Positions 44,203 through 47,396 of a stretch of DNA of 64,000 nt are shown here, in pieces (the stretch's first letter is position 1; the number at the start of each line of letters is the position of its first letter). Under the pieces are notes generated by a model that searched no databases, had not been told where the DNA came from, and worked only from the letters and a program-made list of their open reading frames with translations. Made by a program: the position numbers and the translations under genes. This DNA comes from Bacteroidales bacterium (lineage in GTDB: Bacteria; Bacteroidota; Bacteroidia; Bacteroidales; UBA3663): assembly GCA_045629225.1 (NCBI GenBank), contig JAZQQU010000023.1, forward strand, positions 14,257-78,256, in the 5' to 3' direction.

Positions 44203-45225
44203 TTAATCGATCACGGTCACCCAACCATGGATATCTTCAATGTCACCATACTGGATGCCACGAAGGTGGTTGTAGAGCTGGGTGCAGATAGGACCTGGCT
44301 TCGAATCCTCCAGGATATTGTAGGTCTTATTCTCGTCGAGGTCGTCGATCTTGTAGATTGGAGCAATGACTGCTGCTGTGCCACACATGGCAGCCTCGTC
44401 GAGATAAGAGAGTTCCTCCACTGGCATGGGGCGAACCTCAACCTTATATCCGAGATCACGGCAGACCTGCTGGATAGACATGTTTGTGATTGAAGGCAGG
44501 ATTGATTCCGAATCAGGGGTTACGTATGTATTGCCCTTGAAGCCGAAGAAGTTAGCAGGACCACACTCGTCAATAAACTTCTTGCTACGTGCATCCAGGT
44601 AGATTACAGCAGCATAACCCTTCTCATGAGCCAGTACACCCGAAGCGAGCGATGCAGCATAGTTGCCACCCACCTTCACACGGCCAGTGCCGAGTGGAGC
44701 TGCACGGTCATAACCACGCATAATGCAGCATGGAGTAGCCTTGAAGCCATCCTTGAAGTAGGGACCTACTGGCATGACAAAGATGATGAATTCATACTGG
44801 TCGGCTGGCGACACACCTACCTGTGGGCCTGTACCGAACAGCACAGGACGAATATACATTGAGCAGCCGGTCTCGTAAGGAGGAACCAGATCCTCGTTGA
44901 GCTTCACGACCTTTTTCACAGCCTCCTCAAAAAGTCCGTCAGGCAATGGCTGCATCAAAATGGTACGACAAGTATTCTGCATACGCTTGGCGTTTTCATC
45001 GATGCGGAACACACGAATCTTGCCATCCTTGCCTCTAAAAGCCTTCAGACCCTCAAAGCCAGCCTGACCATAATGGAGCACAGTGGCAGCCATGTGCATG
45101 GTTACCTCTTCGCTCTCCGATACTCTCAATTCACCCCAAGCACCATCTTTATAGGTGCAACGCACATTGTAAGGAGCCTTGCGATAGCCAAAGCCAAGTG
45201 AGCTCCAATCGATCTGTTCTGCCAT
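44203..45225 (-). CDS. ilvE: Branched-chain amino acid aminotransferase
   Basis: LHYGQ..FEGLKA, YIRP, KVGGNYA, ILPSIT, CGTAAVIAP; ATG 45225 downstream of a TAACTTTGCA promoter. Confidence 0.95.
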   Translation of the reverse strand: MAEQIDWSSLGFGYRKAPYNVRCTYKDGAWGELRVSESEEVTMHMAATVLHYGQAGFEGLKAFRGKDGKIRVFRIDENAKRMQNTCRTILMQPLPDGLFEEAVKKVVKLNEDLVPPYETGCSMYIRPVLFGTGPQVGVSPADQYEFIIFVMPVGPYFKDGFKATPCCIMRGYDRAAPLGTGRVKVGGNYAASLASGVLAHEKGYAAVIYLDARSKKFIDECGPANFFGFKGNTYVTPDSESILPSITNMSIQQVCRDLGYKVEVRPMPVEELSYLDEAAMCGTAAVIAPIYKIDDLDENKTYNILEDSKPGPICTQLYNHLRGIQYGDIEDIHGWVTVID

Positions 45226-45357
45226 AGTTATTATGAGTTTCTTTAGTTTAAATCGCTGCAAAGTTAATGAAAATATCTTTATGTTGCTCATTTTTGATGG
45301 CAAAAAATGTCTTTATAGCCCAAAAAAAATGTTTTTGGACAAAAAATGACAAGAAAA

Positions 45358-45572
45358 TTTGGTCGATATGCAAATAAATATTATCTTTGCACCCGCTTTT
45401 TGAAATTAACATCTAAAAGTCCGAACGCAATAACTGGGAGTAAGACTCCAATACAAGGTGAGCATTCAGCAAGCAGTTGCCGCAAGGTTTCAGGCAAGCA
45501 AGGACTGTGCGATGGTAGATTGCCAAAAGCAATTAGAGTAACACATTATTAATTTACAAAAAACAAAACAAC
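45358..45572 (+). promoter_or_regulatory. rplY promoter and ~175-nt structured leader with 5S rRNA loop E-like hairpin
   Basis: TTTG 45358-61, N20, TATCTTTG 45382-89; hairpin TGTG-C-GATGGTAG-ATTGC-CAAAA-GCAAT-T-AGAGTA-A-CACA at 45506-45545. Confidence 0.6.
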
Positions 45573-46130
45573 ATGAAGGAGTATTCACTCTGCGGCACCA
45601 AGCGTGCCGAGTCAGGCAAGAAGGCTGCTAAGCAGCTTCGTGCTCAGGGCCTCATCCCATGCAACCTCATCTCTAAGGAGGGTGCTGTTTCTTTCACCGT
45701 TAAGGCTACTGACGTTCGTAACCTTATCTACACTTCTCAGGTCTATGCCGTAAACCTCAACATCGATGGTGCTGAGTGCAAGGCTATCATCAAGGAGTCT
45801 CAGTTCGGTCCAGTCAACGAGGAGTTGCTGCACCTTGACTTCCTCAAGTTCAATGCTGAGGAGCCAATCACTGTTGCTATCCCTGTTAAGCTTGAGGGTT
45901 TTGCTGAGGGTGTTAAGGCTGGTGGTAAGTTGGTTAAGCAGGTTCGTAACCTTACCGTCAAGGGTCTCTACACCAACATCCCTGAGCGTCTCGTTGTTGA
46001 CGTTACCCCAATCGAGCTCGGCAAGACCATGAACGTGGCTGCTCTGAGTTACGAGAACCTCGAGATTCTCAATGCCAAGAGCGTAATCGTTGCTGGTGTT
46101 AAGGCTACTCGTGCTTCACGCAACAAGTAA
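45573..46130 (+). CDS. rplY: 50S ribosomal protein L25/Ctc
   Basis: GKKAAKQLRAQGLIP, LLHLDF, GVKAGG; strongly biased codon usage. Confidence 0.96.
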   Translation: MKEYSLCGTKRAESGKKAAKQLRAQGLIPCNLISKEGAVSFTVKATDVRNLIYTSQVYAVNLNIDGAECKAIIKESQFGPVNEELLHLDFLKFNAEEPITVAIPVKLEGFAEGVKAGGKLVKQVRNLTVKGLYTNIPERLVVDVTPIELGKTMNVAALSYENLEILNAKSVIVAGVKATRASRNK

Positions 46131-46174
46131 TCGAGCCTCTGATTCCCTCACTGGGGGTCATTCATTCGAAACAG

Positions 46175-46211
46175 TCCTCTTCCCTCCCATTGAGGGAGGA
46201 GGATTTTTTTT
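46175..46211 (+). terminator. Intrinsic terminator after rplY
   Basis: TCCTCTTCCCTC-CCATT-GAGGGAGGAGGA followed by T8. Confidence 0.8.
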
Positions 46212-46225
46212 AATTTTTCGATCTT

Positions 46226-46789
46226 ATGAAATTCCTTATCGTTGGCCTCGGCAACATTGGCGAAGAGTACTGGGGCACACGTCACAACATAGGCTTCCGT
46301 GTGGTTAATGCCTTGGCAGAAGCTCACGATGCCCGCTTTGAAGATAACCGTTATGGTGCCACCTGCGAGTTCCGCGTCAAGAATCAGCAGCTCTTGCTTC
46401 TCAAGCCAAGCACCTACATGAACCTTTCGGGCAATGCTGTTCGCTATTGGATGCAAGAGGAGAAAATTGCCCTCGACCACGTACTCATCATCTGCGATGA
46501 GATCAACCTTCCTTTTGGTGCCTTACGTATGCGTCAGAAAGGCTCAGATGGCGGACACAATGGTCTCAAGGACATCATCGCTAAGTGTGGAGGTCAGAAC
46601 TTTGCCCGACTACGATTTGGCGTAGGTGGTGACTTTCCTAAGGGGGCTCAGGTCAACTGGGTACTCGGCCATTTCCCTCAGGAGGAGGAAGACAAGATGC
46701 CCGAACGTCTCGAAGTCAGCACCAAGTTCATCGAGGAGTTCTGCCTGGGTGGTGTGGTTAATGCAATGAACAGATACAACGGCAAATAA
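46226..46789 (+). CDS. pth: Peptidyl-tRNA hydrolase
   Basis: [30 protein letters not shown]. Confidence 0.97.
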
Positions 46790-46824: not shown

Positions 46825-47280
46825 ATGAACGAAGTCCGTATAGATAAATGGCTTTGGGCTGTGCGTATCTTCAAGACACGCACCATTGCCTCAGATGCCT
46901 GTAAGCTGGGCCGTGTCACCATCGGCGGTCAGCGTATCAAACCCTCAAAGATGGTAAAGGTTGGCGAAGTGATCGATGTGAAAAAGCCACCTATCACCTA
47001 TTCGTTTAAGGTTTTGGCACTCTCTGAGAACCGCATGGGAGCTAAGCTGGTGCCTGGTTTTATGGAGAACGTCACTAAGCAGGAGCAGCTCGATCTGCTG
47101 GAGATGAACCGTATTTCAGGTTTCATCGATCGTGCAAAAGGCATGGGACGACCCACCAAGAAAGACCGTCGCGATATGGACGATTTCTCAACGCCCGAAT
47201 ATGTTGATGAATTTGATTTCAGCCTCGAGGATTTGGACGAATTCGATGCAGAAGACTGGAATGAAATCATGAACAAATAA
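46825..47280 (+). CDS. hslR: Ribosome-associated heat shock protein Hsp15 (S4 domain)
   Basis: RIDKWLWAVRIFKTR, GRPTKKDRR. Confidence 0.9.
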   Translation: MNEVRIDKWLWAVRIFKTRTIASDACKLGRVTIGGQRIKPSKMVKVGEVIDVKKPPITYSFKVLALSENRMGAKLVPGFMENVTKQEQLDLLEMNRISGFIDRAKGMGRPTKKDRRDMDDFSTPEYVDEFDFSLEDLDEFDAEDWNEIMNK

Positions 47281-47342
47281 AAAAGAAGGTCGTCTCACGA
47301 CGACCATCTTCACTAACCTTAAATCTTATACCATGAAAAACA
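47279..47342 (-). ncRNA. Candidate ~64-nt small RNA (resembles Bacteroides paralogous FopS-like sRNAs, from memory)
   Basis: TTTG(47376-79)-N20-TATCTTTG(47348-55); body GUUUUUCAUGGUAUAAGAUUUAAGGUUAG; terminator GGUCGUC-GUGA-GACGACC + U-tract. Confidence 0.7.
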
Positions 47343-47396
47343 CGATGCAAAGATAGGGCCTTTTTCCTATATTTGCAAATTTATACATATAATTTA

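Follow-up and report, generated by a model that had tools for sequence, protein, structure and literature searches.

Genomic context and promoter of rplY

The window analyzed here, a stretch of 64,000 nucleotides from a Bacteroidales contig, carries the ribosomal protein gene rplY (ctc) on its forward strand, preceded by an untranslated leader in which a small hairpin lies shortly before the start codon. The product of the gene contains the Pfam domains Ribosomal_L25p (1.1e-20) and Ribosomal_TL5_C (1.3e-18) and aligns along its entire length with bL25 chains from solved ribosomes (9i5t_Y, 5.6e-51; 7jil_V, 1.1e-31); the gene behind the leader is a bona fide bL25 gene. The features of the locus are as follows.

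Ending near 45226 (− strand): coding region of an aminotransferase-like ORF, 5′ of the rplY leader
45358–45361 (+): TTTG, possible −33 element of a Bacteroides-type promoter, 20 nt 5′ of the −7 box (from sequence)
45382–45389 (+): TATCTTTG, −7 promoter box of the form TAnnTTTG (from sequence)
45395–45572 (+): rplY 5′ untranslated leader, about 180 nt, with a presumed start (from sequence)
45397–45409 (+): UUUUUGAAAUUAA, 5′ strand of a possible, weakly supported outer helix P1 (RNAduplex)
45418–45506 (+): inserted domain particular to the genus, with a closing stem AGUCC/GGACU and two hairpins
45506–45509 (+): UGUG, 5′ strand of P2, pairing with 45542–45545
45510–45518 (+): 5′ strand of the internal loop, composed of C, GAUGG (45511–45515), U, A and G
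45519–45533 (+): P3, AUUGC/GCAAU, with the terminal loop CAAAA
45534–45541 (+): 3′ strand of the internal loop, composed of U, A, GAGUA (45536–45540) and A
45542–45545 (+): CACA, 3′ strand of P2
45546–45572 (+): A/U-rich spacer between hairpin and AUG, of which 45549–45562 could pair with 45397–45409
45573–46130 (+): rplY/ctc, two-domain bL25 of 185 aa (Pfam and match to bL25 chains of solved ribosomes)
46173–46205 (+): terminator-like hairpin and U run, 3′ of rplY
46226–46789: pth, beyond the terminator-like hairpin of rplY

The −7 box and the TTTG before it fit the Bacteroides promoter consensus, and the rplY transcript probably starts near 45394–45397. Of 96 distinct rplY leaders, 84 have a TAnnTT[TC]G box 5′ of the hairpin. 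The letters GCUUUU that follow the −7 box (45395–45401) are kept in 55 of 84 rplY leaders across genera, and they also follow the promoters of rplS (L19) and rpsO (S15) in the same genome (contigs C30 and C65). Genome-wide, GCUUUU is not enriched after −7 boxes (49 matches versus 47 for the control). Rather than the strand of a helix, it may represent a signal in the promoter or initial transcript of some ribosomal protein genes.

Several minor features were observed around the locus. A 68-aa ORF (45346–45552, + strand) overlaps the rplY leader and starts before the promoter box, and it is most likely spurious. The sole Rfam match at gathering score within the 64-kb window belongs to RF04319, the Bacteroidetes FopS sRNA family (47276–47343, − strand; 70 bits versus a gathering score of 56). 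A tRNA-like sequence stands between the promoter box and the rplY hairpin in several records from Paludibacteraceae-like and other Bacteroidales (L084, L173, L182, L186 and L192), which suggests a tRNA–rplY co-transcript in those records.

Structure of the rplY leader

The hairpin at 45506–45545 consists of two helices separated by an internal loop, with the P3 strands AUUGC (45519–45523) and GCAAU (45529–45533) closed by CAAAA (45524–45528). The letters, the two helices and the internal loop that the original prediction had placed before rplY are present exactly as drawn, and the short spacer that it described also exists, although the distance to the AUG at 45573 is 27 nt and not 28. Across 96 distinct leaders the spacer between hairpin and AUG has a median length of 15 nt (interquartile range 13–17) and is 87% A+U.

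Both of the additional stems that had been reported farther upstream were found, and they belong to the 89-nt inserted domain. Its closing stem pairs AGUCC (45418–45422) with GGACU (45502–45506), and it encloses the hairpins GGAGU-AAG-ACUCC (45437–45449, in which GGAGU at 45437–45441 pairs with ACUCC at 45445–45449) and UUGCC/GGCAA (45477–45497). The domain is found in part of the genus only, and neither relatives with short leaders nor most other genera have it; within the genus, its small hairpin (GGGAG-loop-ACUCC type) covaries (alignment pairs 48–63 to 51–60). The stretch UCCGAAC at 45420–45426, inside this domain, is identical to a stretch of the organism's own 5S rRNA; that likeness is probably due to chance because the closest relatives do not keep it.

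Thermodynamic folding gave no significant signal, with z scores of −0.53 for the leader and −0.89 for the hairpin, values to be read with the fact that nearest-neighbour energy rules cannot score a loop E.

Resemblance of the hairpin to loop E of 5S rRNA

L25 is known to bind 5S rRNA at loop E. In this organism the 5S rRNA reads ...GCCGAUGGUACUGCGAAAGCGGGAGAGUAGGU..., and the hairpin has both CGAUGGUA and AGAGUA in common with the loop E of this RNA, in the same orientation. The E. coli loop E strands given in the original prediction agree with the 1DFU RNA printed in PMC1920249, and as in that loop the strands GAUGG and GAGUA of the leader oppose each other between two helices, with the hairpin end located on the helix IV/loop D side. 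Comparison with the organism's own 5S rRNA also bore out the statement that a G is missing from the 3′ strand. Aligned globally with the hairpin, the own 5S arm (L001:394–427) scores 22, whereas shuffled sequences score 7.2 ± 4.5 and 5 of 2000 shuffles reach 22. The apex of the hairpin, UGC-CAAAA-GC, resembles UGC-GAAA-GC of the own 5S rRNA, so that the whole 5S arm is nearly copied in the window.

How far does this likeness extend beyond the window? The longer match, GAUGGUAG/AGAGUA, is particular to the window's clade and a Bacteroidaceae-type variant. The likeness amounts to 8+6 loop letters in the clade, and the letters that are invariant order-wide number 5+5. The resemblance to 5S rRNA rests on 10 to 14 letters. 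In E. coli numbering, the invariant leader letters correspond to G72–G76 and G100–A104, that is, the helix V side and the center of the loop. Five of the seven loop E pairs are reproduced order-wide and six of seven in the window. The A that faces U77 (in AGAGUA) is kept in the window's clade and in the Bacteroidaceae-type variant, and the U itself is kept in the window, where U45516 and A45535 are both present. The pair nearest helix IV is never reproduced in the leaders; in the window A45517 has no G partner, owing to the G that the 3′ strand lacks, and the A-G pair bordering helix IV is lost with it. The majority form of the leader also has G-U and A-U pairs in place of the U-A pair, which leaves two loop E pairs missing. 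A complete, symmetric seven-pair loop E that includes the U-A and A-G pairs by helix IV was thus not found in the leader. L25 presumably touches the loop E/helix IV junction as well. The non-canonical geometry of loop E is assumed for the hairpin.

The likeness also has limits outside the loop. P2 is near-invariant as GUGU/ACAC and differs from helix V of 5S rRNA, which points to some further constraint on the leader. When the order-wide covariance model of the leader (R2, described below) was searched against the genome's own 5S loci with filters off, the loop E arm was absent among 13 matches at E ≤ 10. In three genomes in which both loops were readable, no co-variation was seen between the 5S loop E of the lineage and the leader loop: a lineage-specific change from G to A in the first letter of the leader loop has no counterpart in the 5S rRNA of the genome concerned. 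One 5S rRNA (in G137) shows the same first-position G-to-A change. The mimicry is partial, with GAUGG/GAGUA alone kept across the order.

The leader is distinct from the 5S genes themselves. The 5S rRNA model RF00001 matches neither a gene nor a fragment in the window, and the seven 5S matches in the genome all lie on contigs other than that of the window. The short contig C93 contains two 5S copies (102–210 and 329–437) that are 118 nt apart and differ in their helix I letters, and the remaining five matches are located near contig ends.

Occurrence in the genus and the order

A single module of this type in one genome is unremarkable. A loose whole-genome scan for GAUGG/GAGUA loops between 4-bp helices returned 5 matches, against a mean of 5.6 for 30 permuted-word controls, and the expectation of one module inside a 180-nt leader is about 1.4e-4. 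Because the modules are as frequent as permuted controls, the case for the element rests on its position and its conservation.

A blastn search with the leader against 61 relatives matched 19 genomes, and the best-kept part was exactly the hairpin (query positions 115–160). The match lies directly before the L25 orthologue in 18 of these 19; the exception, L025, belongs to a different family. The window's family comprises a single genus; in 32 of its 39 genomes the element was located by a covariance model built from the 19 close-relative hairpins (R1), at one match per genome except for one genome with matches on two contigs. Of 30 loci examined around R1 matches, 29 adjoin L25 and the last one stops at a contig end. 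Within the genus, AUUGC/GCAAU is exchanged for UUUUGC/GCAAAA in variants, and others, with GAUGGGA.../...UUGAGUA, have their distal loop positions joined as G-U, A-U and G-U pairs. R1 was too narrow for the order, where it gave weak matches only, 4 of 6 of them away from L25.

L25 itself is present in 392 of 401 Bacteroidales genomes, and the upstream regions of its genes extend the element across the order. Among the 30 best-scoring L25 loci of the order, which span identities of 47 to 100% and many genera, 29 have the full motif GUG(U/C)-GAUGG-[variable stem-loop]-(U)UGAGUA-ACAC close ahead of the start codon, and the last one, truncated where its contig ends, retains the 3′ half. A regular expression matched 76 of 80 named Bacteroidales records with an L25 alignment; of the four misses, two have the motif after all, in one case at the end of a contig and in the other with an extended spacer, and two are degenerate forms. 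Carriers include Phocaeicola plebeius, P. coprophilus, Porphyromonas pasteri and P. loveana as well as metagenome-assembled genomes of Paludibacter, Alloprevotella and Prevotella.

A covariance model of 29 diverse hairpins (R2), applied with strict filters, matched once in each of 55 Bacteroidales genomes out of the 151 sampled, and these represent 53 of 148 genera. Where an L25 position was listed, 37 of 38 matches lie just upstream on the same strand, the weak match in G089 being located elsewhere, and L25 directly follows the match in all 29 further loci. A model of 94 instances (R3) gave 54 of 151 and did not raise the tally. Both models under-count, because model-negative genomes hold variants that are recognizable by eye. 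Such variants were seen in 11 of 16 model-negative genomes with a known L25 position (nothing in 5) and in 3 of 15 further ones taken in handle order (nothing in 12), which gives 14 variants and 17 genomes without the element among 31 model-negative genomes of the order. The variants have the form GUGU-(G/A)AUG(G/A)...(G/A/U)AGUA-GCAC, some with GCGU/GCGC or GGGU/GCCC as P2. As a rough estimate, about half of the sampled Bacteroidales genera carry the element.

Outside the order the element was not seen. R2 gave no match in 146 genomes of other Bacteroidota orders and classes, and inspection of rplY upstream regions by eye found the motif in none of 25 from other orders of the class and none of 20 from other classes. 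Since 17 of the 31 model-negative genomes of the order and all 45 outside regions are without it, L25 synthesis does not generally need the element. In those 45 outside genomes rplY follows a prs-like gene (ending ...SIS..F) after a short spacer, and order genomes without the motif mostly have the same prs–rplY arrangement. It seems that the leader emerged in lineages with a separate rplY promoter, its gain following the loss of the prs–rplY linkage.

Conservation and covariation

The conserved core of the element reads GUGU-GAUGG-[variable stem-loop]-GAGUA-ACAC. The original prediction would have fallen had the loop strands not been conserved in relatives, and they are near-invariant in 91 distinct instances: the consensus letters occur in the columns G86 A90 U91 G91 G89 of the 5′ strand and G77 A88 G89 U89 A89 of the 3′ strand, each out of 91 sequences. 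Alignment A5, fitted to the model, comprises 94 instances, of which 91 are distinct; 94.8% of its cells pair, P2 is nearly invariant, and both sides vary in five of the six P3 pairs. In total 43 cells are changed on both sides, a number that none of 500 shuffles reached (8.8 ± 2.4) and that exceeds those of slid controls (3 to 14). Alignment A7, made with MAFFT from 26 diverse instances that were hand-picked for carrying the motif, gave a similar result, with 93.2% of cells pairing, 29 changed on both sides versus 7.6 ± 2.7, and all four P3 pairs changing on both sides. It also contains compensatory changes in P2, where one pair occurs as UA 22, CG 3 and GC 1 and another as GC 25 and AU 1.

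RNAalifold applied to the MAFFT alignment A3 recovered P2 and P3 together with A-U and U-G pairs in the loop E register. With full-length leaders of the genus, for which the MAFFT alignment was poor, RNAalifold did not recover P2/P3 and proposed instead that the 5′ GCUUU pairs with AAAGC atop P3. Conservation is the decisive evidence for the hairpin. An order-wide rplY leader that was previously uncatalogued is real, and its conserved loop copies the L25 site of 5S rRNA.

Comparison with known ribosomal protein leaders

The element shares with ribosomal protein leaders in general that it is a conserved structured RNA directly 5′ of a ribosomal protein gene, and its resemblance to the rRNA site of the protein is partial (the 5+5 letters order-wide and 8+6 in the window). 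With those leaders that imitate rRNA it shares that mimicry is the argument for the ligand. The statement in the original prediction that an L25 leader is known from Gammaproteobacteria only agrees with Rfam 15, which contains RF03131, and with the literature consulted. The Bacteroidales hairpin resembles this L25-Gammaproteobacteria leader (RF03131; PMC4408793) in being a hairpin operator candidate in the 5′ UTR of a monocistronic rplY, the location that defines RF03131, and in its proposed ligand, L25, which would repress translation in competition with the 30S subunit. It differs in that neither sequence nor structure match. A search of the leader (window 45200–45700) against Rfam 15 gave no match at E ≤ 10, RF03131 included, so the element stays below the 34.1 bits required for membership, while the rplY leader of E. 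coli K-12 used as a control scored 46.9 bits.

According to Aseev, Bylinkina & Boni 2015 (PMC4408793), the enterobacterial hairpin is unlike loop E, and enterobacterial L25 control needs a weak GAGA Shine-Dalgarno element. The A/U-rich spacer at 45546–45572 has no GAGA before the AUG. The L25 regulatory features are described, in the 2024 review PMC10931766, as confined to species with a short one-domain L25. The Bacteroidales case differs from the enterobacterial one on both counts, with a two-domain L25 and a host without Shine-Dalgarno pairing.

Within the Bacteroidia, Table 1 of Eckert & Weinberg 2020 (PMC7247131) includes leaders for S4 and L13, and the Bacteroidales element is like these in being a lineage-restricted structured leader before a ribosomal protein gene that emerged from comparative analysis. 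The same table has no L25 leader for Bacteroidia, and the enterobacterial one was re-found in that study. Neither rplY nor L25 appears in the main text of the transcriptome study of B. thetaiotaomicron (PMC7366714). Full-text searches of the literature, which for PMC7366714 and PMC7247131 covered the main article, found no Bacteroidales L25 leader.

A proposed model for autogenous control of L25

How would such a leader act? We consider it likely that the hairpin is an autogenous translational operator of bL25 that works by partial rRNA mimicry in a large part of the Bacteroidales, and the interpretation put forward in the original prediction is supported to that extent by the comparative sequence data. 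L25 in excess of free 5S rRNA would bind the copy of loop E on its own mRNA. The L25-loaded hairpin near the AUG would then prevent loading of the 30S subunit, either competitively or by steric exclusion, and translation would fall; 5S rRNA would compete for L25 and thereby relieve repression. In the window's genus the weak outer helix formed by 45397–45409 with 45549–45562 may add masking of the start region. Bacteroidia ribosomes depend on an open, A-rich start region. Initiation in this class is described as Shine-Dalgarno-independent and tuned by mRNA structure in PMC6847099 and PMC7797042.

An alternative hypothesis is that L25 does bind but that control is chiefly a structural switch, in which stabilization of P2/P3 is followed by sequestration of the pre-AUG region in P1. 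In all leaders of the genus the 5′ end and the spacer can be joined by 6 to 13 A/U-rich pairs, sub-clades have different yet matching strands, and the minimum-free-energy fold of the window contains the P1 helix (13 pairs, 45397–45409 with 45549–45562, −6.8 kcal/mol by RNAduplex). However, cognate partners are barely better than non-cognate ones (−5.1 versus −4.0 kcal/mol), and forcing the hairpin leaves the predicted accessibility of −15 to +3 unchanged (0.77 versus 0.80 in 79 leaders; 0.745 versus 0.712 in the window). The 5′ segment in most genera is moreover about 22 nt long, and its possible pairing is that of a U run with an A run. Masking by P1 as the main mechanism is not backed by these computational tests; it may add some effect, and we regard a switch of this kind as improbable. 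Far less probable still, to the point of being nearly negligible, is a chance resemblance or a functionless relic of a 5S gene fragment. The folding energies are those of an unremarkable sequence and similar modules occur about five times per genome by chance, yet the element is conserved across the order with covarying helices, which already contradicts this explanation, the window contains no match to the 5S model, and the likeness to 5S rRNA stops at the arm.

The remaining explanation accepts a conserved leader structure but gives it another role, as a stabilizer against RNases, a standby or enhancer site for Shine-Dalgarno-independent initiation, or the site of another protein, with the loop E letters serving as a common stable way to close an internal loop. 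This would account for the conservation of P2 (GUGU/ACAC) and of the 5′ GCUUU, neither of which has a 5S counterpart, and it fits with the promoter-proximal GCUUUU at rplS and rpsO, with the failure of the leader model to find 5S rRNA, and with the fact that GAUGG/GAGUA modules are not rare in the genome. It is less easily reconciled with the occurrence of one element per genome, always ahead of the gene whose product is the only protein known to bind loop E, with the ten loop letters being the most conserved while the helices drift, or with the extension of the likeness in the window's clade to 8+6 letters and the apical UGC-loop-GC. We therefore judge another role unlikely, and an operator read by L25 remains the preferred reading.

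If the hairpin is such an operator, what would it add to what is known of L25? Autogenous L25 control is known only in enterobacteria with a short protein, where no 5S likeness is visible, and the Bacteroidales element would extend L25 feedback to a two-domain (CTC-type) protein and provide a case of rRNA mimicry of textbook quality. The leaders form a series that runs from the 5×5 core GAUGG/GAGUA through the Bacteroidaceae form with AGAGUA to the near copy of the helix IV/loop D/loop E arm in the window's clade, and under the operator reading this series would show which part of loop E is read by L25 and how the mimic improved stepwise. Tentatively, and with slightly more doubt than confidence, we propose that this is the first L25 operator by evident rRNA mimicry and the first ribosomal protein feedback element characterized in the Shine-Dalgarno-blind translation of the Bacteroidia, that repression would consist in keeping the 30S subunit off an open A-rich start and not in masking a Shine-Dalgarno sequence, and that the variants represent a graded series of mimics. 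To our knowledge very few cis-regulatory RNAs are known in gut Bacteroidales, and the L25–leader pair would, if the operator is real, offer a small and defined protein–RNA system for translational control in these organisms. RNA family libraries would gain a missing family, which the models R2 and R3 and the alignments A3, A5 and A7 could seed. A further observation concerns the apical part of P3, which at many loci, as judged by eye, contains Shine-Dalgarno-like GGAAGC or GGAGCA in organisms that avoid such sequences.
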